From: an uncultured cyanobacterium
GTDB lineage: Bacteria; Cyanobacteriota; Cyanobacteriia; CAKZMO01
Assembly (NCBI GenBank): GCA_963719515.1
Contig: CAVRCJ010000018.1
Coordinates: forward strand, 1 to 64,000
Direction: 5' to 3'
DNA length: 64,000 nt
This document shows, one piece after another, positions 6,559 to 48,532 of the stretch. A program made the position numbers and the translations under genes. The number at the start of each line of letters is the position of its first letter. Positions within the stretch are counted from its first letter, which is position 1. The notes below the pieces were generated by a model. That model was not told the DNA's origin. It saw only the letters and a list, made by a program, of their open reading frames with translations, and searched no databases.

Positions 6559-6827
6559 CGCTCTGATGCAAGCGTCCTTTATTGAACGAATGGACAATTT
6601 GGTAAACTGTCTTCTTTGACCCATTACCTTTTGACGGTAAAGCTACCGTTTAAAGGCATAAACAATAAGAAACCGCCTAGACGGTAATCCAGGCGGAGTA
6701 TGGTGTGAGGAGTGAACGGAAACAAATTGTCTCCGCTATACAGTCCATTGTAAGCGAGCGATCGGCTTTTGCCAGCCTCTAAAGAACGAGTTTTTGGCGA
6801 TCGCCCCCAATTATCGATCCCGGTTAG

Positions 6828-19070: not shown

Positions 19071-19884
19071 TCAAGAACCTAGATCGCTTATCCCCTTCAC
19101 GGCAGAATTTCCTTACTCGTTTAGGACTACCGCATAACGATGTTGCGTCCCTCCGCTGAAGAGATACCCGACCCAGTCACGCGACCTGTGAGGGGATTGT
19201 AGCTCATGTTCAGATCCGCACGCCGTCTCTGGGGTTGATATCTGCGTACTCATCAGACAAGCCACCATCGGATTCCCGGATGCTGATGGAGAAGGGGATG
19301 GCGGTTTTGGCAATGCTGACGCAAACTGGGCCTGCGCCACGGGCGCTGCCGACAAGAAAAGGTTGTAGCTTGTCCGACTCAGCCCCCAGTTGATGACAGT
19401 CAGGAAGTAGGTTTCTACAGGGAGGCGATCGCTGCGGACAAACTGTGTGGTGTCGAGCTGATTGCTGCGAAGCAGGGTCTGCTGGCGGATGTCTTGAAGC
19501 GATCTCTCGACAGAGGCATCAAGGCTCAGGCCGCTTATATTTGCAAAGAACTGGCTGATGGCATTCGTTCTAAACCGCCACCGGCCCACCACGTCTGAAC
19601 CGCTTAAGCTTCCTCTCACCAGGCGATATCTGGTTGGTTGACGCGACCGCCGTCGTCACTCTGATTGGCTTCATCGACGCCATTGTTGGGTTCGTTTTCA
19701 AATTCGCGAATACACCGGTCCGGGTCTCAAAATTGAGCCGGTACGGCGTGCTACCCGCACCCGTTTTCTGCACTCGCATCAATATGGCTGTCAATGCCCA
19801 GCTCGTCTGAACCAATAATTTGCTCTCACGCTCAAATTTCGTGCGATCGCGTAATAGTATTGTCGCAGTTGACGAGGCCACTGC

Positions 19885-20000
19885 GCTCCCTGCATGCCAC
19901 CAACAACTGCCGCGATAGCCTCCATGCTCTCGGCTACGCCCGCTCCGACGAATAGTCCTGGCCCGTACCTTTGGTTAACACCGACATCGTCCGCAGCCTG
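19885..20000 (+). pseudogene. Remnant of the small-ORF family seen at 42599-42952
   Basis: CAACAACTGCCGCGATAGCCTCCATGCTCTCGGCTACGCCCG nearly identical to 42795-42890; TGG changed to TAG. Confidence 0.8.
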
Positions 20001-20009
20001 GCCCAAAAA

Positions 20010-20095
20010 ATTGGGATACAAGCCCTGTCTTTTAGGAGGCCTTTATATGACAATAATATTCATGAAGTGCCGCCATCAGTACTATATCTATCTGA
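20010..20095 (+). mobile_element. Left-end remnant of an IS200/IS605 tnpB element
   Basis: ATACAAGCCCTGTCTTTTAGGAGGC hairpin-like end followed by MKCRHQYYIY, resembling the TnpB N-terminus MKARYQYRIY. Confidence 0.5.
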
Positions 20096-20759: not shown

Positions 20760-20886
20760 GTCGGTCTACGTCAGCTCGCACTTGAGCGGCGGGCCTCGTA
20801 GCGCACCGTGAGGAGTAGCCGCGATCGCCGCGTAGAGGCTAGATGGCGCTTTAAGGGCGATCGCCATAGCGGGTGGGGAAGCCCGA

Positions 20887-21261
20887 CTACCGAATGGGCC
20901 GCTGCTGGATGAGGTAGCTGAGCACCTGGCCATGGGTGGGGGTGATGTGGACGCCACGATCGCCAATGGCAATTAGCGGGGTCCACAGCCGCCATTCCAC
21001 GTACTGCAGCACGTGCAGCCGGTTAATGGCTTGGCGCACGCCTTCGGGGGAGCCGATGATGATGTGCCGCAGATGTGAGTCTTCGACTGGTCCTGAAGGG
21101 CCAACGCAACCTGGCGCTGGCGAGGGCTCAATCAGCGTGGGGATAGCCGGGTCCGCTTCTAGAGGGGAGTCTAGCCGCAGCGCAGCGGGTTCCGCAGCGG
21201 GGTTTTGGGGCGCTGCAAACTGTGCCGCCCCTTGGGGCAGCGATGGGTATTGAGTTGTCAT
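20887..21261 (-). CDS. Small cyanobacterial hypothetical protein, module copy 1
   Basis: LRHIIIGSPEGVRQAINRLHVLQYVEWRLWTP conserved across three copies with synonymous changes; GGAG RBS. Confidence 0.8.
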   Translation of the reverse strand: MTTQYPSLPQGAAQFAAPQNPAAEPAALRLDSPLEADPAIPTLIEPSPAPGCVGPSGPVEDSHLRHIIIGSPEGVRQAINRLHVLQYVEWRLWTPLIAIGDRGVHITPTHGQVLSYLIQQRPIR

Positions 21262-21485
21262 GAGGGACTCCATTTTTTGAGTTGAGTTGGAGTCCCCCGC
21301 CGACCGATCATCCTCGACGTTTTTTGGGGGTGGGATGACCAGGTACCATGTACTCCAGGCGTCCCGACAGCCACGTTCTGTCGCGGGGGCTTAGGGGCTG
21401 CATGTTGCGACATCAACATGCGGCTCCGCCCAAGACCGAATCTTTGGGAGACTAGAACCATGGGGACCACGGCTCATAGCTCCCG
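21262..21485 (-). ncRNA. Putative structured leader RNA, module copy 1
   Basis: Conserved stems GCATGTTG/CAACATGC, CGACAG/CTGTCG, GGGACTCC/GGAGTCCC; TTGCCA-17-TATTCT promoter upstream. Confidence 0.6.
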
Positions 21486-21584
21486 AGAATAGATCATTTG
21501 TGGGCGGGTGGCAAGAGGGTAGCGTGATTTTCTGAGATGTGGCGTTGGGCGATCGCTTTGGGGGATTGGCGATCGCGGTTCGGG

Positions 21585-21785
21585 AGAACTGTTGACCTGC
21601 TTAGCAGTTCTAAATTGTTGCTTTGGAGTTCTGTTGAGCTGCTAATGAGTTGAGCAGTGCTACTCTCTAGTTCTGCTGAGCTGCTCAGGAGTTCTAAAAT
21701 GCTGCTCGGGAGTTCTGTTGAGCTGCTTGGGAGTTCTGTAGACCGACTCACCAGTTCTGCTGGCTTGCTTGGGAGTGCTGCTGTG
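21585..21785. repeat. Degenerate 21-nt tandem repeats
   Basis: Recurring AGTTCTG(T/C)TGAGCTGCT unit; minus-strand frame gives ELxSxST heptads; second copy at 28655-28835. Confidence 0.75.
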
Positions 21786-22367
21786 GGGCGATCGCTGCAT
21801 AGAATGGAGCAAGCTCCCGTATATTGAGAGGAAGCAATCTTCAGCCAGGGCAATGATTCTTGCCATAAACCAGGAGAAACTCACTAGCGTAATAAATGTA
21901 GGATTTTCCAGCTCTGAGGCCGTAGCGCCTTACACAAAACGCCTATTTTACTCAATTCAGGAGTTGATAATACTGCAATTTTAGAATGGATAATTGCGAT
22001 ACAATGCCACTACATAGGCACTCTCTGAGAAAGCGATGAATAACGCTCTAGAGTCCATATTTATATGAATAATGTAGAGGCGATAAGAAGATACACAATA
22101 GCTCCGAATTTTTAAAGATAGACACTAAATGTGGTGAATAGTCATGAGAAGAAGGGCATTATCTGTTAGACGTGCTTCGGAAGGCGAGGCATTATTTGGG
22201 AGAATCTAATGTTGAGTGCATAGTTGGCTTGTCGATTTGAAGGATCTTGGAAATGGACAAGCCAGTAGCATTTTTTCGATTCGCTCCGCGACTTGCTCAA
22301 TGTGCTATAAGCAGCTTAGTTGATCCAGTCTAAAATTGAATCCATTTTCAGCTTATAAAAAATTCCT

Positions 22368-23063
22368 ATGGTATATTCACATTCAGCTCTGAGGTTAAAG
22401 CAATTGGAAGACAATATCAGCCATGTCTTACAACTATTGAATGAGTATGAAAAAGAATTACTTGACGAAGACGATCCTAGCAGGATAAGTAGGTATCGTC
22501 GCCGCGTCGAAACGCTGAGGCAGCAAAAGAAAAAATACGAAGAAGAGTTTTTAGATCTACAAGACAAACTGAAAAGCAAATACCCAAATCGAATTCAATC
22601 TCTTTCTAGTCAAATTCAGAATATTGATAACAAGATTGACTCATTTCTAGAAGGTCAAGTAGGACTTTCTCAAGAATTAATGTTACATTTTAGCTCTGAA
22701 GTTCAATGCCTCATTCTACCTCTTGCGCAAAAGCTAAATCAGTCTGAGATTGTAAAATCAAAGAAGCTTTTAGAATCCATAGATAAAAATCTCGTTCCAG
22801 AAGAAAGCATGCGCTTAATATTGTCAGAGATCAGTCAAGCAATAAAAATATCGCAAGACGAAAAACTACATCTTCCGGAAGAAAGCGAGATTGTTGCTGA
22901 AATAATCAATTCGCCAGAAATTGATGCAAAGCACGCGTTAAAGGTCTCAATTCCTATTATTCCTTTCGTTCTCGCATATGAAGGAGAATTAGGATTGGGG
23001 ACTGGAATCAATCTTAAAGAGTTTTGGACAAATTTGAGATCGAAGTTTATCAAGGATAGTTGA
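22368..23063 (+). CDS. Hypothetical protein with N-terminal coiled-coil effector-associated-like domain; first gene of the Lamassu-like operon
   Basis: Low GC; stop overlaps next start; LLDEDDP helical hairpin; C-terminal KVSIPIIPFVLAYEGEL. Confidence 0.75.
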   Translation: MVYSHSALRLKQLEDNISHVLQLLNEYEKELLDEDDPSRISRYRRRVETLRQQKKKYEEEFLDLQDKLKSKYPNRIQSLSSQIQNIDNKIDSFLEGQVGLSQELMLHFSSEVQCLILPLAQKLNQSEIVKSKKLLESIDKNLVPEESMRLILSEISQAIKISQDEKLHLPEESEIVAEIINSPEIDAKHALKVSIPIIPFVLAYEGELGLGTGINLKEFWTNLRSKFIKDS

Positions 23064-23713
23064 GCTTTATGAATTGGCGAGAGGAAAGAAAGCTTGGCCT
23101 TGACAAAAATATGCTTAAAATTGTAAAGCTTCTTGGCACATGCGAACAAAGTTTGATTGATGAGAGCGATCCTCAAGCTAGAAATAAGCTAGAAGCTCAA
23201 ATTTCTAAACTTAGGGAAGACATGAGTAACTGCCAATCAGATTTGGAGAGACATGAGTCAGTATCTTATACTCCATCGGGTTCTGCCTTAGCAATGGCCA
23301 GTATCGCTTATGATGACATTACATTTGTGATTACAGCCCTTTTGAATCAGAGAGCAAATTTTTCAGATGGACAGAGCATTTTTCAACCCACTAACCCCGA
23401 AGAAAAAATGTCTAAGAATTATTTGACACACGAAATTAAATTTGCCCTGGGCATGGGTTTAGCTAAAGCAGGCGAAGTGCGCCATTTTATCGAGCAAAAT
23501 GCAAAGATCTACTTCCCTGATGTTCCAGAAAGACTCAAGGCAGCTTTAAATATCGAATATAAGAGGCTGCTTAGTCAGGGTATCCGAGGAGACGAGCTAT
23601 TCAATCAGCTTTATAGATTTTCGCACCAAAATAGTTCAAATACCTCGCGCCAGCTGGCAGGTTTAGCAGTTTTATGTTACTTCTTTGAAACTTGCGATAT
23701 TTTTGAGCCGTGA
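23060..23713 (+). CDS. Lamassu LmuA-like protein (ABC-three-component C-terminal domain)
   Basis: C-terminal LAVLCYFFETCDIFE motif typical of ABC-3C CTD; no catalytic N-terminal domain recognised. Confidence 0.8.
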   Translation: MSFMNWREERKLGLDKNMLKIVKLLGTCEQSLIDESDPQARNKLEAQISKLREDMSNCQSDLERHESVSYTPSGSALAMASIAYDDITFVITALLNQRANFSDGQSIFQPTNPEEKMSKNYLTHEIKFALGMGLAKAGEVRHFIEQNAKIYFPDVPERLKAALNIEYKRLLSQGIRGDELFNQLYRFSHQNSSNTSRQLAGLAVLCYFFETCDIFEP

Positions 23714-23937
23714 TATTACCTGATAAGTATATTTCAGTAGATAACTCATTACTAGGAGTTGGTGCTATTATCATAAAATATTTGAATCAGCCTCGAACAG
23801 TGACTTCCCTTTGGAGCGATTTATCTAAGATTTCAGAAGTTTCTACCTTTGAGCGATTTGTTCTAGGACTTAATTTGCTTTATATGATTGGGGCTATTGA
23901 ACTAAAGGAAGGCTTACTCCAAAAGCGTCGCCAATGA
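23710..23937 (+). CDS. Lamassu LmuC-like protein (ABC-3C middle component)
   Basis: MILPDKYISVDNSLLGVGA...LNLLYMIGAI; 75 aa; lies between CTD gene and ATPase gene. Confidence 0.85.
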   Translation: MILPDKYISVDNSLLGVGAIIIKYLNQPRTVTSLWSDLSKISEVSTFERFVLGLNLLYMIGAIELKEGLLQKRRQ

Positions 23938-25679
23938 TAAACTCTATATTTGCAAATAAAGACTCCTTTAAGCCAGTTGAATTCGCGCATGGATTCAATG
24001 TAATATTAGCCGATCGCACAGATTATTCTAGTTCTAGAGACTCGCGCAACGGTTTAGGAAAGTCAAGCCTTATTGAAATTATTCATTTTTGCTTGGGCTC
24101 GAGTCCGCGTAAAGGTACAGGACTAAGAGTATCAAGTTTGAGAGGGTGGTCTTTTGGCCTAAATTTGACTCTAGCAGAGCGCGAAATCATTGCTACGAGA
24201 AGTGTTGATGAACCTACGAAAATTTATTTGCAGGGCAATACTACTGATTGGATAATTCAGCCAAGATCGGAAGAAAATCAGAAATTTTATAAGATAGAAG
24301 AATGGAAAAAGCTGCTTGGATACCTAACTTTCGAATTGGCGATTAATGAGGAACGGCAGTTTGCTCCCAATTTTCGCGGTCTAATTTCCTACTTTATTCG
24401 GCCAGGAAAAGACGCATTTTCTACGCCTTTCGAATACTTTAGGAAGCAACCAGGGTGGCAAAAGCAAGTTCTTAATACTTTTTTGCTAGGGCTTGCCTGG
24501 GAAGATGCCAGCGATTTTCAGAAGATAAAAGAAGAAGGAAATCTGTTAGACAGTCTCAAGAAGCTAAAGACCTCTAATCAAGGTATTATCTCGACAAGAA
24601 TCTTAGGGTCACTTGGAGAGTTGGAAGCTGCTCGAGTCAGAATTGAACAGCAACTGCAAAGGCGGCAAGAGGACTTGAGCAATTTTCGCGTACATCCTCA
24701 GTACAAAGAGCTTCAAAGAGAAGCTAATCTCCTTACTTCTGAAATACATGAAATTACAAATGAGAATATATTTAATCGTCAGCTTTTAAGCTTTTATCAG
24801 TCTAGTGTTGAGCAAGAAAGCGAACCAAACAAAAATGATCTGCTTAGACTATATGAAAGCGCCGGCGTTGAGCTTCCAGGTTTAGTTATTCGCCGTCTGG
24901 AAGAAGTAGAGGCTTTTCACCATAGAATCATCGAGAATAGGCGGGGTTTTCTGCTAACGGAAGTTCAGCGTCTAAGGCGAACTATTGCTGATCTAGAGCA
25001 GTTAATTCAAAGAAAAATTGAACAGCGAGCTGAGAGGCTTGAAATTCTACAGACTCACGGTGCTTTAGAAGAATATACTAGGCTCCAAGAATTGTACTTG
25101 GAGACGCGCTCCGACCTCAATGATATTAATAAGCGTATCGATGAGCTGAGAAAAGTAGAAGAGGGAAAAAGTGCTCTTCGGATAGAAAAAGAGCTTTTAC
25201 AGCAAAGAGCACGCCGAGATTATGAAGAGCGCTATGCTCAGGCTGAGCGGGCGATTACACTATTCAATTCAAATTCGCAAGCCCTCTATGATGCTCCAGG
25301 AACGCTTGCGATAAATGTAGGCTCAGGCGGATTTCAATTTAATGTTGAAATTGAAAGAGATCGCAGTGAAGGAATTGGCAAAATGAAGATTTTTTGCTAT
25401 GATCTAATGCTTGCCCAACTATGGGCACAACGGGAAACATCCCCTGGCATTCTTATTCACGATAGTACTATTTTTGATGGCGTCGATGAACGTCAGGTTG
25501 GTCTAGCACTTGAATTGGCAGCTAGAGAATCAGAACGACTTGGCTTCAAATATGCCTGCGCTCTCAACTCAGATATGGTCCCGTTAACAGAATTTTCACC
25601 TGAATTTGATTTCGATTCTTTTATAAGGCTTAGGTTGACTGACGATGAGGGCGGAAACCTTTTTGGCATCGAATTTTGA
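23934..25679 (+). CDS. Lamassu LmuB SMC-like ABC ATPase (DUF2326-type)
   Basis: Walker A SRNGLGKSS, long coiled coil, LIHDSTIFDGVDERQ Walker B/D-loop region. Confidence 0.9.
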   Translation: MINSIFANKDSFKPVEFAHGFNVILADRTDYSSSRDSRNGLGKSSLIEIIHFCLGSSPRKGTGLRVSSLRGWSFGLNLTLAEREIIATRSVDEPTKIYLQGNTTDWIIQPRSEENQKFYKIEEWKKLLGYLTFELAINEERQFAPNFRGLISYFIRPGKDAFSTPFEYFRKQPGWQKQVLNTFLLGLAWEDASDFQKIKEEGNLLDSLKKLKTSNQGIISTRILGSLGELEAARVRIEQQLQRRQEDLSNFRVHPQYKELQREANLLTSEIHEITNENIFNRQLLSFYQSSVEQESEPNKNDLLRLYESAGVELPGLVIRRLEEVEAFHHRIIENRRGFLLTEVQRLRRTIADLEQLIQRKIEQRAERLEILQTHGALEEYTRLQELYLETRSDLNDINKRIDELRKVEEGKSALRIEKELLQQRARRDYEERYAQAERAITLFNSNSQALYDAPGTLAINVGSGGFQFNVEIERDRSEGIGKMKIFCYDLMLAQLWAQRETSPGILIHDSTIFDGVDERQVGLALELAARESERLGFKYACALNSDMVPLTEFSPEFDFDSFIRLRLTDDEGGNLFGIEF

Positions 25680-27724: not shown

Positions 27725-27963
27725 GCGCCGCTGCTGTCCCTGGCGGAATTTGGATTTCTAGCTCATAAAACCAATCACAAAGCAGCTAGCGCTTGCTTTC
27801 CCTTGACGATCTGTCTCTCGTCTTAAAAGCAGGGGCCAACTCGTTCAGCGGACTAAGCAGAGCGCACCATGAAACGTCGACAGGCTTTAGGCAAAATGGC
27901 GATCGCCGCGTAGAGGCTAGATGTTGCCTTAAGGGCGATCGCCATAGCGGGTGGGGAGCCCGA

Positions 27964-28338
27964 CTACCGCATGGGCCGCTGCTGGATGAGGTAGCTGAGC
28001 ACCTGGCCATGGGTGGGGGTGATGTGGACGCCTTTTTCACCGATGGCAATCAGCGGGGTCCACAGCCGCCACTCGACGTACTGCAGCACGTGCAGCCGGT
28101 TGATGGCCTGGCGAACGCCTTCGGGGGAGCCAATGATGATGTGCCTCAGGTGTGAGTCTTCGACTGGCCCTGAAGGGCCAACACACCCCGGTGCGGGGGA
28201 GGGCTCAATCAGCGTGGGGATAGCGGGCTCGGCTTCCATGGGGGAATCTAGCCGCAGCGCAGCGGGTTCCGCAGCGGGGTTTTGGGGCGCTGCGAACTGT
28301 GCCGCCTCTTGGGGCAGCGAATGATATTGAGTTGTCAT
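27964..28338 (-). CDS. Small hypothetical protein, module copy 2
   Basis: Paralog of 20887-21261. Confidence 0.8.
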   Translation of the reverse strand: MTTQYHSLPQEAAQFAAPQNPAAEPAALRLDSPMEAEPAIPTLIEPSPAPGCVGPSGPVEDSHLRHIIIGSPEGVRQAINRLHVLQYVEWRLWTPLIAIGEKGVHITPTHGQVLSYLIQQRPMR

Positions 28339-28560
28339 GAGGGACTCCGTTTTTGAGTTAATTGGAGTCCCCCGCCGACCGGACATCCGCGACGTTTTTG
28401 GTTTTGGGATGGCCGGGTAATATCATTACTCCAGGCCGTTCCCGACAGCCACTGTCTGTCGTGGGGGCTTAGGGGCCGCATGTTGGCATCAACAGCATGC
28501 GGCTCCGCCCAGACCGAATCTTTGGGAGACTAGAACCATGGATAACGGCTCATAGCTCCA
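28339..28560 (-). ncRNA. Putative structured leader RNA, module copy 2
   Basis: Same stems as copy 1 with different loops; TTGCCA-18-TACCTT promoter upstream. Confidence 0.6.
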
Positions 28561-28928
28561 TAAGGTAGGACATTTGTGCGCGGGTTGGCAAGAGGGTGGC
28601 GCGGTTTTCTGTTGAGGGTGGCGATCGCTTTGGGGGATTGGCGATCGCGGCTTGAGAGATCTGTTGACCTGCTCAGCAGTTCTAAATTGTTGCTTTGGAG
28701 TTCTGTTGAGCTGCTAACGAGTTGAGCGGGGCTGCTCGCTAGTTCTGCTGACCTGCTCAGGAGTTCTAAAATGCTGCTTAGGAGTTCTGTAGACCGACTC
28801 ACCAGCTCTGCTGGCTTGCTCTGGAGTTCTGCTGTGGGGCGATCGCTGCACGTAATGAAGCAACCTCGCGCAGATGAATAGGAATTGGCCTTTGGTTAGC
28901 AATTACGAAGACTCAAGCCCTTGAGAAT

Positions 28929-29128
28929 TTAATTATCCAGAGGGCTACGCACTCCACGCCCACCCCGATTTAGGACATGCGTGTAAATCATTGGTGGCGC
29001 TTGTCATGGAAGAGGATGAATTCGCAGATGTAGTGAATGTAAGATTTCTCGGTTTTGAGGCTGTAGTGCTTTGTACGAAGCACCTGCTTTACCTGGCCGA
29101 GCAGGCGAGGAGGCTGTGATGACGACAT
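28929..29128 (-). pseudogene. intI: Integron integrase with large internal deletion
   Basis: N-terminus MSSSQPPRLLGQVKQVLRTKHYSLKTEKSYIHYICEFILFHDKRH joined out of frame to C-terminus MIYTHVLNRGGRGVRSPLDN*. Confidence 0.92.
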
Positions 29129-29134
29129 CGCTAA

Positions 29135-29365
29135 TCACGGGATAACACCGATAAATGGGGTGTTGTCTGACAAAAGTGACGGATAATACCCTATAAATCA
29201 TGGTTATCAGACAAGAGCGACGGATAACGCCCTAAATTTCCGGAGTTGGCCGTCAGATGCGGCGGATGATTGCGGAAAGTAGGGTGTTATTCGCTAGATA
29301 TGCCTGATAAGATCTGGGAGGCAGGGTATTATCCGCCAGATCTGACGTTGAATATATAGTTAGAA
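29135..29365 (+). promoter_or_regulatory. attI-like region ending in core site GTTAGAA
   Basis: Lies between the intI start and the cassette; GTTRRRY-like core at 29359-29365; repeated GGATAAYRCCCT motifs. Confidence 0.7.
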
Positions 29366-29406
29366 ATCAAAGGCAGAACCCGTGCAATCATGAGGGAATA
29401 GACAAA

Positions 29407-29622: not shown

Positions 29623-30618
29623 ATGAAAAAAAGAGCACCTAGAAACCGCACGTTGACCTTGGAAGACGATGAAAAAGACACGCTTCTTAGGGAAACTATC
29701 ACACTTCAATCTGCTTGTGAGGCAGAGCAAATAGAAGGAAAAGTTATAAATCAGGATATTTTTTCTTGTATTGAATACTTGCCAGGCAATTTTATTGATC
29801 TTCTTGTAATTGATCCACCATACAATCTCAATAAAAAATTTGGTGAAAGCAAATTCTCTAAGAAATCAGAAGATTCTTATCAGGAATGGCTTGAATCATG
29901 GATACCAAATCTCAAGAGATGTCTGAAGAAAGACGCCTCTTTATATGTATGTTGTGATTGGCAATCTTCAAAGCCAGTTCAAGCCGTGCTTGAACGATAT
30001 TTTACAATCCGCAATCGCATCACATGGGAAAGAGAAAAAGGAAGGGGCGCAAAAACAAATTGGAAGAATTGTTCAGAAGACATTTGGTTTTGTACTATGT
30101 CAAATGATTACTATTTTGACGTCGAGGCGGTAAAACTTAAGAGGAAAGTAATTGCGCCTTATCGACATTCGTCAGGAAAACCGAAGGATTGGGAGGAAAC
30201 ACCTAAAGGAAATTACCGTCTAACACACCCCTCGAATTTATGGACGGATATATCTATTCCATTCTGGTCAATGCCGGAAAACACAGATCATCCTACTCAA
30301 AAGCCAGAAAAATTAATCGCAAAGTTAATTCTTGCAAGCTCTAGGGAGGGTGATTTTGTCTTTGACCCGTTTCTCGGTTCTGGCACGACATGCGTAGTTT
30401 CAAAAAAATTAGGTAGGCGATTCTCTGGCATAGAGATTGAATCTGAATATTGCGCTATGACAGTAAAACGACTTGCTCGCGCCGACTCTGACAACATCAT
30501 TCAAGGCTACCATGATGGTTATTTTTGGGAACGCAACAGCCTTGCCAAGCAAAAACAGAGCAAGAAAAAAAATAGTCAAGGTCAGGATGTTGTGATGGGA
30601 CTGTTTGATGAGCAATAA
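29623..30618 (+). CDS. N4-C/N6-A DNA methyltransferase (beta class)
   Basis: DPPY precedes HPTQKP and DPFLGSGTT. Confidence 0.92.
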   Translation: MKKRAPRNRTLTLEDDEKDTLLRETITLQSACEAEQIEGKVINQDIFSCIEYLPGNFIDLLVIDPPYNLNKKFGESKFSKKSEDSYQEWLESWIPNLKRCLKKDASLYVCCDWQSSKPVQAVLERYFTIRNRITWEREKGRGAKTNWKNCSEDIWFCTMSNDYYFDVEAVKLKRKVIAPYRHSSGKPKDWEETPKGNYRLTHPSNLWTDISIPFWSMPENTDHPTQKPEKLIAKLILASSREGDFVFDPFLGSGTTCVVSKKLGRRFSGIEIESEYCAMTVKRLARADSDNIIQGYHDGYFWERNSLAKQKQSKKKNSQGQDVVMGLFDEQ

Positions 30619-31765
30619 AATAAATGAGCTATTAGCGTTTATCGAAGAGCATAATGGTATTAACGATAAATCGAAATTATGTAAGCTTGTGGCGGATAAA
30701 TTTTCATTAACGAAAGACCGCTCTGTTTTTTATTGCAAAGAGTTTGCCATACGTTATAGCTCATCAAACAGCCAGAGCTTTTCAAATACAGTGCTTTCCT
30801 TATCCAAACTACAAAAGGTCGATGATCGCCCGTTTTTAGTTTGCCTAGTTGCCCCTAGTAGAAATCATATCCTTTTATCAAACACTACGTTCTTGAAAAA
30901 GATAAGCCACAGCTCTCAAGAGCTTCGTGAGAACAATATTCGTGGCAGCTTCAACGGCTCCGACATTATGCGAGAATTTGAAGGTATCGAGAACAAGCCA
31001 GAAAATATTGAACGGTTATTTAATATACACGCAGAAATCGGTTTTGAAGGCAACTTGGTACGCTTGGTTGAGGCAACGAACAATATTAGTCCTTCTGGAA
31101 CGAAATTTGCGCCAACTAATACGCAAATAGCCACTATATTAGATGCTCCACGCAGGGCCGTTGGTTTTGTTGGTAGTGATGATTTGCGGACGCTCAAGGA
31201 TGAATTGGATGTAAAGGTTGATCAATATAAGAACGAAATCTTGCTGGCTGGGCTGATAGAGAATGTGAATGTACGTGGGAGGATAATAGAATATCTGATT
31301 GCTGGTGAAGATGAGAGACTAAGGCAAGAAATTATAGATGCACTTTTGCAGAAATCTAACGGAATACCACAGTTTAAAACAGAAAATACTCTTGGCGATT
31401 ATTCGAGGGAGTTTGAAGAATATTTTACTGAGACAGATGTAAAGACAAAAATCATGGTTCTTAATTCAAACCCGAAAGCGTACAACCTTGATAAGGTTCT
31501 TGAGTTTTTGGCGACGAAAAAATCGGTGTTTATGTTTTATTTTGTAGGGATTGCACCAACAAAGATTGTTAACACAGTTCTAGTATCAATGTTTCAAGAA
31601 GACCTATTGAATTCAACTCTACTGCTAAAACACTGGTCAGGAAGAAATTCTAGGGGTGTTAGTCAGTTTGAGGGAAAAACAATTGGTAGGTTGATACTTT
31701 CACCGAAAAGTCACATCGACAATGAGAAAGCAACTAGCTTCCTTCGTAGGTTATTAGAGTTGTGA
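30605..31765 (+). CDS. Putative type II restriction endonuclease
   Basis: Overlaps the MTase gene; GD...TDVK PD-(D/E)xK-like motif; low GC. Confidence 0.65.
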   Translation: MMSNKINELLAFIEEHNGINDKSKLCKLVADKFSLTKDRSVFYCKEFAIRYSSSNSQSFSNTVLSLSKLQKVDDRPFLVCLVAPSRNHILLSNTTFLKKISHSSQELRENNIRGSFNGSDIMREFEGIENKPENIERLFNIHAEIGFEGNLVRLVEATNNISPSGTKFAPTNTQIATILDAPRRAVGFVGSDDLRTLKDELDVKVDQYKNEILLAGLIENVNVRGRIIEYLIAGEDERLRQEIIDALLQKSNGIPQFKTENTLGDYSREFEEYFTETDVKTKIMVLNSNPKAYNLDKVLEFLATKKSVFMFYFVGIAPTKIVNTVLVSMFQEDLLNSTLLLKHWSGRNSRGVSQFEGKTIGRLILSPKSHIDNEKATSFLRRLLEL

Positions 31766-33902: not shown

Positions 33903-33967
33903 GCGATCGCCGTGTAGAGGCTAGATGTCGCTCTAAGGGCGATCGCCATAGCGGGTGGGTCGTCCGA

Positions 33968-34315
33968 CTACCGAATGGGCCGCTGCTGGATGAGGTAGCT
34001 GAGCACCTGACCTTGGGCGGGGGTGATGTGGACGCCGCGATCGCCGATGGCAATCAGCGGGGTCCACAGCCGCCACTCGACGTACTGCAGCACGTGCAGC
34101 CGGTTGATGGCTTGGCGAACGCCTTCGGGGGAGCCGATGATGATGTGCCTCAAGTGCTCGCAGCCGGGGGCTGGGGAGGGCTCAAGCAGCGTGGGGATAG
34201 CGGGTTCGGCTTCCATGGGGGAATCTAGCCGCAGCGCAGCGGGTTCCGCAGCGGGGTTTTGGGGCGCTGCGAACTGTGCCGCCTCTTGGGGCAGCGAATG
34301 ATATTGAGTTGTCAT
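33968..34315 (-). CDS. Small hypothetical protein, module copy 3
   Basis: Paralog with an in-frame 27-nt deletion in the Pro-rich linker. Confidence 0.8.
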   Translation of the reverse strand: MTTQYHSLPQEAAQFAAPQNPAAEPAALRLDSPMEAEPAIPTLLEPSPAPGCEHLRHIIIGSPEGVRQAINRLHVLQYVEWRLWTPLIAIGDRGVHITPAQGQVLSYLIQQRPIR

Positions 34316-34540
34316 GAGGGACTCCGTTTTTGAGTTAATTGGAGTCCCCCGCCGACCGGACATCCGCGACGTTTTTGGTTTTGGGATGGCCGGGTAATAT
34401 CATTACTCCAGGCCGTTCCCGACAGCCACTATCTGTCGTGGGGGCTTAGGGGCTGCATGTTGTCATCAGCAACATGCGGCTCCGCCCAGACCGAATCTTT
34501 GGGAGACTAGAACCATGGGGACCACGGCTCATAGCTCCAT
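34316..34540 (-). ncRNA. Putative structured leader RNA, module copy 3
   Basis: Same stems as copies 1 and 2. Confidence 0.6.
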
Positions 34541-34892
34541 AAGGTAGGACATTTGTGCGTGGGTTGGCAAGAGGGCAGCGCGGTTTTCTGTTGAGGGTGG
34601 CGATCGCTTTGGGGAGGGTGGCGATCGCAGCTTGGGAGAGCTATTGGCCAGCTTAGCAGTTCTGAGATCTTGCTTTTTTCAAGCGCTCATCGACTGATCA
34701 CTGAAGAAATTTATTCGCCAAACCGGGGTGAATGCCTAGAGTTTGGGCTGAATATGCAATGAGAGTGATGGTGCAATCGCTTATCGAAATGCGCACTACA
34801 AGATCCTCGATTGCACTTATTTTATGAGTCAGGGCATACTTATAAGGCCCCTACTGTAGTCTAGCGACTCAGCCAACTTAGAATCTGTCAAC

Positions 34893-39083: not shown

Positions 39084-39264
39084 TGTCTGGTTATAGCTTA
39101 AGGTCTGTCATCTTGCTTGCTCAAGTAAGCGGAATCACCAATCTTGTTGGTGCAACAGAGGGGGGAACCCTACAATCGCTGCTCCCAGCTCAGCCCAACC
39201 AGCGCCTCTAGACTCCAGCCGTCCGTCTCTATTTCTATTCAGAGCCCAGAATATCGCTACCCCA

Positions 39265-39434
39265 GCGCCATCGGCTCCCTTCGCGCCGACAACTGCCGCG
39301 ACAGCCTCCACGTCCTGGGTTACGCCCGCCCCGACAAGTGGTCCTGGCCCGTGCCCCTGGTCAACACCGACATCATTCGCACCGTCACCTCCGGGGAGAT
39401 GATGCGAATCCTCACCAAGCGAGTGCCGCGCTAG
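39265..39434 (+). pseudogene. 3' remnant of the small-ORF family seen at 42599-42952
   Basis: ...NCRDSLHVLGYARPDKWSWPVPLVNTDIIRTVTSGEMMRILTKRV*. Confidence 0.85.
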
Positions 39435-40919: not shown

Positions 40920-42285
40920 ATGAACTACACCTAACCGCTACGCTGAGCTAGGTGTTTCGTGCGCTTCATTGCCCCTAGTTGCCTCATGCTTCCGCAGTTG
41001 GTAGAGCTAGGCGGCTCAGCGCTTGCGAGGGAAGATTCCTGCCCCCGTGCCCAGATCAGATTGACCTGAGCAGCATTGGTATCGCGGTCTTCGGTATGGC
41101 CGCAGTGTTGGCATCGGTGGATACGGTCGCTCAACGTCTTGGGCGTCAGCTCCCAGCACTGAGCGCAGCGCTGGGACGGCTTGAGCTGCCGGGTAGGAGA
41201 CTCCAGATAGAATCCGCCCGCCTCAGCTTCCTTGTAGGACAGCAGCGGTCTAACCCTTGCAAACCCCACCGACAGGATTGAGCGATTGAGACCGGCCTTT
41301 TGACGTTTCCGCTTGCCTTTGCGGGCCTTGCGGGTCATGCCCTTGACGTTAAGCTGCTCTCCGGCGACTAGGCTATTACGGCTAACTATGTTGCTGGTGA
41401 GCTTGTGCAACCAATCCGCTCGCTGGTTGGCTACCTTGCGTTGAATCTTGGAAACTTTGCGTCTGGCTTTGCGCCAGCGGTTAGAGGCTTTGACGCCCTG
41501 CTTGCGGTTGGGCCTGCGTTTGCGGCGCAGCACCTTGCAGGCCTGCTTAACCGCGACATCGCCCGCTTTGATGAACTCAGGCTTTTCCTCTTTGGTGCCG
41601 TCTGAGAACGACACCGCATTAGTGCAGCCTAAGTCTATCCCGACAGCACCGCCAGCGGTTTGGCGCTCTGGGCTGCACGCCACGGTGATGGAGGCGTACC
41701 ACTTCCCTTCACTTGGCCGGTAGACAATCGTGCAGGTTGTCGGTCTCCCCCAGGTACGAGCTTGTCCTCGCATCCGAATCTTGCCCAAGTTTGATAGCTG
41801 CAGGCAACCATTGATGCCATCGCTTAGCGCCTTCCAGCCAGAACCGCACGGATAGGTCCAGCCAGAGAACAGCCGTATCGACTTGAACTTGGGATACTTC
41901 CCTAGCCCTTTGAAGAACCGCTGAAACGCAAAGTCTACTCGCTTGACCGTAGCCTGCAAAGCATGACTGCCCAAAGCTTTGTACTCTGGCCAGCACTCCT
42001 TGAATGCAGGTAGCAGGTTTTGCTGGTCGATGTAGCCCACAGACTGCCCGTGCTGTTTGTAGCTGGTGCGGCGGTGCTCTATGCAGGCGTTGTACAGGTA
42101 GGCATGAAGACGCCGCCACTCGAACAGCATCGCCCCTTGCTGGGTCGTCGGGTAGAGCCTATACGTTACACGGCGTGTTGCCATAACTCGATGTATGCAC
42201 TGAGACAATCGTACTATGTTCGCTACGCTCACGCGCTATCCTTCCCTAATCCGCTTCGCTGAGATTAGGGACTGCCGCGATTCTG
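40920..42285 (-). mobile_element. IS200/IS605-family tnpB-only element (IS1341-like)
   Basis: Left-end hairpin CCCTAATC/GATTAGGG; right end TTCAT; no TSD; precise removal restores the racemase start. Confidence 0.9.
40931..42184 (-). CDS. tnpB: RNA-guided endonuclease TnpB
   Basis: YRLYP, GIDLG, GEQL, CxxC-CxxC Zn finger, DRDTNAA; RuvC D-E-D intact. Confidence 0.95.
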   Translation of the reverse strand: MATRRVTYRLYPTTQQGAMLFEWRRLHAYLYNACIEHRRTSYKQHGQSVGYIDQQNLLPAFKECWPEYKALGSHALQATVKRVDFAFQRFFKGLGKYPKFKSIRLFSGWTYPCGSGWKALSDGINGCLQLSNLGKIRMRGQARTWGRPTTCTIVYRPSEGKWYASITVACSPERQTAGGAVGIDLGCTNAVSFSDGTKEEKPEFIKAGDVAVKQACKVLRRKRRPNRKQGVKASNRWRKARRKVSKIQRKVANQRADWLHKLTSNIVSRNSLVAGEQLNVKGMTRKARKGKRKRQKAGLNRSILSVGFARVRPLLSYKEAEAGGFYLESPTRQLKPSQRCAQCWELTPKTLSDRIHRCQHCGHTEDRDTNAAQVNLIWARGQESSLASAEPPSSTNCGSMRQLGAMKRTKHLAQRSG

Positions 42286-42379
42286 TTCACGCCAGCGCTC
42301 CCATTTTCTCTATTGTTAACTCAGCCCGCGAAATCTCGCTAGTACGGTTGTAAACCGCCTCAACATCCGCTACACTCCC

Positions 42380-42598
42380 TGCCCATGGGCACAAAACGCG
42401 CCCTAACCCAGACGCCCAAAACTTTAGCGCGCCCCCTGGCAGTGCCGACAACACTAGCCAGAGAGCATAACCGCAGCGTTGAGCTAAGCAACGCGACGGC
42501 TATCGAGATTTTATCTTGTGGTAGCTGTCCCGTCCTTCACCGCGTGGATGGCTGAATGACTTGGGCGTCTTTCCTAAACCCACAAAAGGTAAGACACA
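42380..42598 (+). ncRNA. Putative structured leader RNA of divergent module member 4
   Basis: TTGTAA-17-TACACT promoter; AGACGCCCAA (42410) pairs with TTGGGCGTCT (42561); internal hairpins. Confidence 0.55.
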
Positions 42599-42952
42599 AT
42601 GACATACGACTCCCAGCCCCGCCGCAGCGAGGCACAGACCGGTCATGATGACGAGCGCCGTCTGCGCCAGGAGCTGTTCCCCGGCAGCAGCAGCCTTTGG
42701 GCCGCCCCCCTGCCTGAGAGCCCCGCCCCAGAGCCAGAACTCCCGCCCGACGACCAGCGCCTGCGGCTGATCGCCATCGGCTCCTTGCACGCCATCAACA
42801 ACTGCCGCGACAGCCTCCACGCCCTCGGCTACGCCCGCCCCGATGAATGGTCTTGGCCCGTGCCCCTGGTCAACAGCGACATCATCCGCAGCCTCACCCC
42901 CGGCGAGATGATGCGCATTCTCACAAAGCAGGTGCCGCCGCCGGGACGGTAG
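42599..42952 (+). CDS. Small hypothetical protein, divergent member of the module family
   Basis: LRLIAIGSLHAINNCRDSLHALGYARPDEWS aligns with LRHIIIGSPEGVRQAINRLHVLQYVEWRLWT. Confidence 0.75.
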   Translation: MTYDSQPRRSEAQTGHDDERRLRQELFPGSSSLWAAPLPESPAPEPELPPDDQRLRLIAIGSLHAINNCRDSLHALGYARPDEWSWPVPLVNSDIIRSLTPGEMMRILTKQVPPPGR

Positions 42953-48150: not shown

Positions 48151-48284
48151 GCTTGAGCATTCGGACCCTGTACGGTTGGCTGCGTGCGTTTAGGAAAAGG
48201 CGGGGCTCATACAAAAATTCCCTCGCGCGGGGCGAAGGAATCGCGCTGGCCACAGGACCAGCAGAGTCGACAGTATTGATTTAG

Positions 48285-48465
48285 GCTTACCGCAACGCCG
48301 TCTTACCTCAGCTTCCGACCTGGATAAACCAGGTGGGGTCCATGGCTCTCCGATTTAAAGTTTCCGAGTCTAAGCCCGGTTTACTGCCATCGGTGCACTT
48401 GATCCCCTTATTGGCGAAGCATAGATCGTAAAACATTGTTGGCAGTCACCAACGCCGCAGTAAGC
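48285..48465 (-). ncRNA. ssrS: 6S RNA
   Basis: GCTTACTGCGGCGTT...GACGGCGTTGCGGTAAGC terminal pairing; cyanobacterial 6S core CCACCTGGTTTATCCAGGTCGGAAG. Confidence 0.9.
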
Positions 48466-48532
48466 ATGTCTACAGTTTAACGGCTCATCGGCAGGGGCGC
48501 ACCATGGGGATAGTACGGATACCTGAATCAAT

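Follow-up and report, generated by a model that had tools for sequence, protein, structure and literature searches.

Four small genes lie in the window, that is, the whole stretch of 64,000 nucleotides analysed here, which corresponds to contig C18 of a 5.28-Mb cyanobacterial genome. Copies 1 to 3 are on the minus strand and member 4 is on the plus strand, each one consisting of a promoter, a leader of ~220 nt and an ORF of 115-124 amino acids (Table 1). The question raised by this locus is whether the leaders control the translation of the small ORFs. An earlier note on the same DNA had claimed that one leader strand (Y) pairs either with a 5' strand (X), closing a multi-hairpin structure and freeing the ribosome-binding site (RBS), or with a downstream strand (Z) that buries the RBS, and had proposed either a conserved translational switch or a processed antisense-type RNA. 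The core of the leader carries four hairpins, P3 to P6, and a short linker joining P3 to P4 is conserved. A covariance model of the core matches the four leaders at 92.2 bits (copy 1, a training row), 87.6 and 87.1 bits (copies 2 and 3, outside the training rows) and 80.9 bits (member 4, a training row).

Table 1. Positions of the leader modules and related features in the 64,000-nt window
Feature	Position	Strand	Details
Copy 1 promoter, sigma-70-type	21486..21514	-	-35 21509-21514, 17-nt spacer, -10 21486-21491
Copy 1 transcription start	near 21480	-	Inferred
Copy 1 5'-terminal hairpin P0	21455..21475	-	Compensatory changes in 4/8 pairs; some branches without P0
Copy 1 strand X, 5' side of long-range helix P1	21446..21453	-	
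Copy 1 conserved core	21291..21449	-	P1/P2 close junction of hairpins P3, P4, P5, P6
Copy 1 strand Y, common to P1 and RBS hairpin	21289..21298	-	
Copy 1 strand Z with Shine-Dalgarno-like GGAG	21264..21271	-	
Copy 1 start codon	21261-21259	-	Conserved ATG
Copy 1 orphan ORF	20887..21261	-	124 aa from conserved ATG
Copy 2 promoter and leader	28339..28591	-	X 28524-28531, core 28366-28527, Z 28341-28348
Copy 2 ORF	27964..28338	-	124 aa
Copy 3 promoter and leader	34316..34570	-	X 34501-34508, core 34343-34504, Z 34318-34325
Copy 3 ORF	33968..34315	-	115 aa
Member 4 promoter and leader	42348..42598	+	-35 42348-42353, -10 42371-42376
Member 4 leader strands		+	X 42410-42419, P5 3' strand 42509-42521, Y 42561-42575, Z 42587-42595
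Member 4 ORF, divergent paralog	42599..42952	+	117 aa; 24% identity to copy 1 over domain
Member-4-type ORF remnant, without leader	39261..39429	+	No covariance model match
Member-4-type ORF remnant, without leader	19881..20042	+	Internal stop; no covariance model match
Integron-integrase remnant, internally deleted	28932..29101	-	Only two ends left; upstream of copy 2

All the quoted segments were found where the earlier note had put them. In copy 1 the X:Y helix has 8 bp including one G-U pair and the Y:Z helix has 8 perfect base pairs, 11 in the fold; copies 2 and 3 hold identical X, Y and Z strands. In an anchored test on copy 1 both helices share 8 nt of Y. Folding of copies 1-3 predicts precisely the X:Y helix for transcripts that stop short of the RBS and for those in which the RBS is kept unpaired; at full length from the inferred start the minimum-energy fold contains the RBS hairpin. 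The two states are unequal in energy, the RBS hairpin being preferred by 6.9, 5.1 and 6.2 kcal/mol in copies 1, 2 and 3, respectively. Member 4 is a true homolog rather than a look-alike, as indicated by its place in a unified alignment and by its match to the model, although it was a training row; a single MAFFT alignment accommodates all leader clusters. The pairings that the earlier note quoted for it are present: 42410-42419 pairs perfectly with 42561-42570, and 42567-42575 pairs with 42587-42595 at 8 of 9 positions, but this RBS helix is weak and the quoted helices overlap by only 4 nt. Here the open, long-range state is the more stable one, by 2.2 kcal/mol. The energy gap is 0.0-1.8 kcal/mol for three of eight class-B leaders, and the predicted balance ranges from strongly off (copies 1-3) to on (member 4 and leader L270).

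Two such helices arise easily by chance, and therefore the case rests on co-evolution rather than on their presence. Of 114 leaders picked by eye, 64 of them in this genome and the other 50 spread over 14 further genomes, 106 passed a loose blind two-helix test; the corresponding counts were 100 of 400 for other upstream regions and 99 of 456 for shuffled sequences. A long-range helix of at least 9 bp was predicted in 111 of the 114 transcripts cut before the RBS, compared with 174 of 400 controls. The cost of opening the RBS was rejected as a marker of the leader, since its median (6.2 kcal/mol in 39 leaders) was not above that of 150 controls (6.5 kcal/mol, p=0.7). A helix between the P3-P4 linker and the 5' side of P5 was also discarded, as it was present in just 15 of 34 leaders. 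A long P6 and P2 plus P5 may exchange by a register shift, a reading that is no more than suggestive: the mean predicted probability of P2 was 0.48 with the RBS open and 0.21 when free.

For the co-evolution analysis the leaders were reduced to 39 at <80% identity, leaving out a broken row (L117) and two members that lacked locus references (m01 and m34). The strands were delimited by alignment anchors, every cross pair was scored, and cognate pairs were compared with non-cognate ones over 20000 permutations. Cognate X:Y pairs reached -12.7 versus -8.4 kcal/mol and cognate Y:Z pairs -14.8 versus -9.9 kcal/mol, in both cases with 0 of 20000 permutations as extreme, counts that overstate independence because the leaders are related to one another. 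The X:Z control pairing gave a null result in the same 39 leaders (12587/20000). The X:Y and Y:Z helices overlap by at least 3 nt in 36 of the 39, and a set of 18 hand-picked distinct designs reproduced the co-evolution of both pairings. The hairpins were scored on the structure that we had named, over a MAFFT alignment of 34 of the 39 cores (five with large insertions were left out), ignoring kinship among leaders; in P3, P4 and P6, 89.8% of 772 cells were paired versus 32-44% in slid controls, with 141 double changes versus 47.5 in shuffles. Conserved secondary structure with covariation was found across all subfamilies. Only 4 of 196 columns are invariant, and 27 are conserved at 85% or more, most of them inside helices, beside the conserved linker and one A that never varies; the P6 sequence and the helix lengths of the core are conserved across families. 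The leader sits in cis between its own sigma-70-type promoter and the start codon: a strict promoter pattern occurs 195-262 nt before the start codon in 109 of the 114 leaders, compared with 53 of 3000 random sites. Hence, comparison at the level of sequence shows a leader with its own promoter, a multi-hairpin core and two exclusive sets of pairings, both kept by compensatory change across subfamilies and genomes. The check on many homologs that the earlier note had called for thus lends comparative support to its proposal of a conserved translational switch. Covariation backs the folding predictions, and the existence of a functional switch of translation with two states is considered likely.

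A second expression platform is present in part of the group of member 4, where the RBS strand pairs with the 3' strand of P5 instead of Y. In 17 group-2 leaders (two further rows lacked the anchor) cognate pairs of the P5 3' strand with Z scored -11.2 versus -7.2, with 0 of 20000 permutations as extreme, whereas no co-evolution was detected in 17 group-1 leaders (1860/20000; four further ones lacked the anchor). In several lineages Y then pairs with a segment located just before the RBS. For both platforms, the off state requires an opened core and the on state a closed one. Three of the four leaders folded from outside the training set (L262, L264 and L286) repeat the two predicted states, P5 burying the RBS and the core closing once the RBS is opened; the fourth, L270, is already open. 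In member 4 itself the P5:Z duplex was considered and rejected: it is possible, but the resulting state is 10.8 kcal/mol worse than the open one.

Taking these results together, we propose that the leader represents a new RNA family and acts in cis as a translational switch that is off by default and gated by an effector, a reading to which we give a probability of roughly 0.55. In the model, X would pair with Y during transcription, closing the core before the RBS exists, which is the on state. The emerging RBS strand would then invade through the free 3' part of Y and bury the Shine-Dalgarno sequence, giving rise to the off state. In the other branches, Y would pair with the neighbouring segment and the freed 3' strand of P5 would bury the Shine-Dalgarno sequence. 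A trans-acting effector, either a small molecule, an ion or a protein, might bind and hold the closed core, turning translation on; this is the least certain step of the model. In most riboswitches the regulated genes hint at the ligand, and here they offer no hint; a metabolite pocket is also expected to hold more invariant nucleotides than the 4 of 196 found in the leader.

The leader is abundant. A profile of the conserved C-terminal domain of the ORF product (family 1) gives about 80 matches in this genome (80-81, a few being pieces of one gene), and 67 of 73 leader matches lie 5' of a same-strand family-1 ORF, the other six being partial or decayed. By sequence the leaders fall into clusters of 25, 22 and 15 plus small ones, with copies 1-3 and member 4 in different clusters. 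The family-1 protein occurs in 16 of 151 sampled genomes of the phylum and in 24 of 41 relatives, with 760 representatives at 50% identity and 13 plasmid records. The RNA spans several families of cyanobacteria: the covariance model finds it in 13 of 150 genomes, with at most 19 candidates scored per genome, and in 17 of 41 relatives of genome G002. In a first model search, 22 of the 27 matches checked precede family 1, two precede a different ORF and three are partial or have no clear ORF. In a second search, 26 of 28 new loci precede a second orphan family of 120-220 aa (family 2) and two precede family 1. No similarity was detected between the proteins of the two families, and in genome G219 the leader of a family-1 gene matches that of a family-2 gene at 179 of 226 positions. 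Within the family-2 leader set the co-evolution signal is weak for Y:Z (375/20000) and moderate for X:Y (79/20000). Some copies carry insertions of 90-135 nt between core and start codon; in L230-L241 (G178), L127 and L280, short tandem repeats are inserted between strand Y and the RBS. One model match of 49 bits (L212, G038:C1:376558-376712) has no clear ORF of either family behind it, and in L128 (G162) a tRNA-like gene replaces the 5' part of the leader, only the 3' end remaining before the ORF. Five metatranscriptomes contain 4-10% of the sequence words; in the strandless contigs of four of them modules of relatives are present, and some of these contigs reach into the promoter.

The protein of copy 1 is composed of a variable proline-rich N-terminal part and a conserved domain of ~60 aa, for which a beta-alpha-beta-beta fold was predicted (pLDDT 83). 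Family 1 is predicted to form a homodimer by pairing of the first beta strand, with a score of 0.65 (best control 0.00) on a scale whose mark 20 of 30 solved pairs attained, against 1 of 23 single chains; between runs at least 96% of the contacts agreed, with pLDDT of at least 77. The fold predicted for family 2 comprises a helix, a three-stranded sheet and long helices (pLDDT 86). Both folds, of 60 aa in family 1 and 197 aa in family 2, are predicted to be soluble, and by sequence and model neither is a short hydrophobic peptide. Family 1 had no match in Pfam, NCBIfam or PDB sequences, nor in a phage collection searched with one query; against PHROGs, 1 of 58 rows appeared at E=0.043, and fold searches gave a best Z of 4.0 and no Foldseek hit with E <0.001. 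Its Atlas neighbours are unnamed cyanobacterial proteins, the named members among 10 clusters being 'hypothetical'. Searches with family 2 gave no useful match, one of 15 proteins touching an excisionase PHROG at E=0.03. Blank searches for both families do not show that the folds are new.

Genes of toxin-antitoxin systems, defence or insertion sequences were found upstream in 15 of 41 modules versus downstream in 2 of 41 (p=0.0007), considering the two nearest called genes, assigned by hand and post hoc on crude gene calls, with ORFs without assignment counted as neither. The genes upstream of the modules in the window belong to an ABC-three-component locus and a methyltransferase pair or encode an NYN protein and TnpB. 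The first is an AT-rich locus of three genes (22368-25679, plus strand; CTD10, DUF2326/AAA_23) upstream of copy 1, which we take to be Lamassu-like. At 29623-31765 (plus strand) an N6/N4 methyltransferase gene is followed by a 385-aa gene without Pfam or NCBIfam match, probably a restriction-modification pair, and the IS605-family TnpB gene (40931-42184, minus strand) is divergent from member 4. The integrase remnant near copy 2 is context, outside the switch. As a protein it appears at 1 of 81 family matches, with related DNA beside m03 and m05 (C1) and the leader-less m64 (C14), and on its other side, at ~29150-29370, there are repeated short motifs that may be an attI-like region. In genome G162 modules converge on integron integrases, linkage to integrons being that of a minority of modules. 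The leader was rejected as an integron component, constant linkage to integrase and attI not being found, and a general tie to tyrosine recombinases was rejected as well, with a single weak match in the genome.

The leader resembles translational on-type, strand-exchange riboswitches in being a 5' leader with a P1-closed multi-helix core and a downstream strand that competes with P1; mutually exclusive pairings and different expression platforms on one core are also shared with riboswitches. Unlike them, its genes are orphan rather than metabolic or transport genes, it is found in up to ~70 copies per genome and it has no Rfam match: in Rfam 15 no family reached the gathering threshold on the leaders, the best E being 0.44 for copy 1 and 0.87 for member 4. 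Likeness to the c-di-AMP riboswitch, twister, pistol, retron and group II intron domain V was considered, and Rfam gave no support to any of them. A strand-exchange mechanism, of the transcriptional type, is described for the yxjA purine riboswitch in PMC9756952. No description of the leader RNA or of either protein was found in a search of mostly open papers, with the 409 structures of PMC12873609 outside the comparison. That 2026 screen covered 202 cyanobacterial genomes and reported 409 new structures with KEGG orthologs as anchors; leaders of orphan genes were therefore not its target, and its list might include the leader through a neighbouring gene. As a candidate the leader is well supported: it would be a new family of regulatory RNAs in cyanobacteria, within a kind of regulator that is already known.

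A different kind of control is offered by toxin mRNAs. According to PMC13000454, activation of the timP mRNA (timPR, type I) is purely structural: a long-range interaction destabilises the RBS stem-loop. The leader is similar in that a long-range 5'-UTR pairing would free the Shine-Dalgarno sequence from a stem-loop and an alternative pairing would lock it off. Under such control the protein would be harmful, the switch would be ligand-free and structural, with the long-range pairing opening the RBS hairpin in a subpopulation, and a small antisense RNA would police the mRNA. A structured mRNA with a buried RBS, as in type I systems, is predicted here, and the multi-copy spread, the plasmid records and the toxin-antitoxin and defence genes upstream would fit addiction modules. 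However, neither protein resembles a short hydrophobic type I toxin, both being larger, predicted soluble and unrelated to each other, and neither an antitoxin RNA nor a pseudoknot was found. The sole promoter-like site in 20780-21620 is in sense orientation, leaving no antisense one, and no terminator-like site was found there; with the position of the leader 5' of a same-strand ORF, the processed antisense-type RNA of the earlier note is not supported either. The order of events also differs from that of AapA3/IsoA3: there, according to PMC6733600, transient metastable hairpins block early translation, whereas the nascent fold predicted for the leader leaves the RBS free. Co-transcriptional folding would govern RBS access in both. 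Toxin-mRNA-type control seems on the whole unlikely.

That folding order, together with the toehold layout, the small energy gaps in several members and the modest nucleotide invariance, would suit a kinetic dose limiter without effector. The mRNA would be translatable only briefly before the RBS strand invades, keeping output low and set by transcription-translation coupling, temperature or growth rate. Such a limiter, however, leaves unexplained why the four-hairpin core, the linker and the P6 sequence are retained across families and two platforms, and we consider it rather improbable. Beta-strand-paired homodimers are common in nucleic-acid-binding regulators, and the predicted family-1 homodimer, together with the exclusive tie of the leader to family 1 within this genome, would suit autoregulation by binding of the encoded protein to its own leader. 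Since near-identical leaders precede an unrelated protein, the leader is not tied to one family, and either both proteins would have to bind it or control would have to act in trans; autoregulation is accordingly quite doubtful. The very high copy number, the ordinary energy of RBS burial and the 90-135-nt insertions could suggest that the structure serves another purpose, as an independent non-coding RNA, in RNA stability or in spread of the module, RBS pairing being a by-product. This is very improbable: in each of two independent designs the RBS strand and its partner have co-evolved, no terminator-like site follows the core of copy 1, and copies lie at varied sites in a genome with one weak tyrosine-recombinase match.

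The effector-gated, default-off switch can be placed beside the cassettes of mobile elements, of the cI-cro or ImmR-Xis type, in which a divergent repressor faces a small accessory gene. Family-1 members without leader (no model match) often face an XRE/HTH or ribbon-helix-helix gene; some lie behind such a gene in the same orientation, and for others, m63 among them, there is none. Family 2 is split likewise, the leader-less L247 and shorter relatives facing HTH genes, and leader-less members of both families are found on plasmids beside ParG, replication or recombinase genes. The resemblance does not extend to the proteins, with no sequence or fold match to Cro or Xis. In a tree of 74 family-1 domains leader presence changes five times, at least two of them on well-supported branches, the tree resting on 69 columns and a bootstrap that had not settled. 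From this gene arrangement, the RNA leader and the divergent repressor appear to be alternative ways to keep both gene families off: the RNA would do the job of the XRE/HTH repressor, an accessory gene of mobile-element type remaining silent until a signal arrives. A more tentative extension, possible though not probable, is a riboswitch-like class that senses a stress or mobile-element signal, replaces XRE repressors and moves as a promoter-plus-leader cassette between unrelated accessory genes. If so, one signal could switch on a whole paralog family translationally through the ~70 copies of one genome. Regulation would then have evolved in an unusual way, an RNA leader taking the place of a repressor gene in front of unrelated genes. 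An effector, if it exists, would represent an unrecognised signal. The natural variants supply on-biased and off-biased constructs and two expression platforms, and the leader offers a way into two orphan protein families that are widespread.

In both families, members that lack the leader often have a single short hairpin directly ahead of the RBS (L062, L064, L074, L078 and L247), which may be a third and minimal element of control. In L068 (G059) the gene facing the family-1 gene encodes a 450-aa protein whose N-terminal domain is XRE-like. In the window, a conserved 3' element of 59 nt follows the ORFs of copies 1-3 (20821-20879, 27899-27957 and 33903-33961) and is bounded by HIP1-type octamers. 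Degenerate short repeats lie between the promoters of copies 1 and 2 and the upstream genes (21548-21833 and 28620-28884), and the same repeats are found beside m03 and m05. Two further repeats of ~170 nt, each in two copies 91-92% identical (13791-13963/20138-20310 and 33738-33901/38427-38590), are unrelated to the leader. The Rfam RNAs in the window are 6S RNA (48283-48466) and Yfr1 RNA (6671-6736), both on the minus strand.
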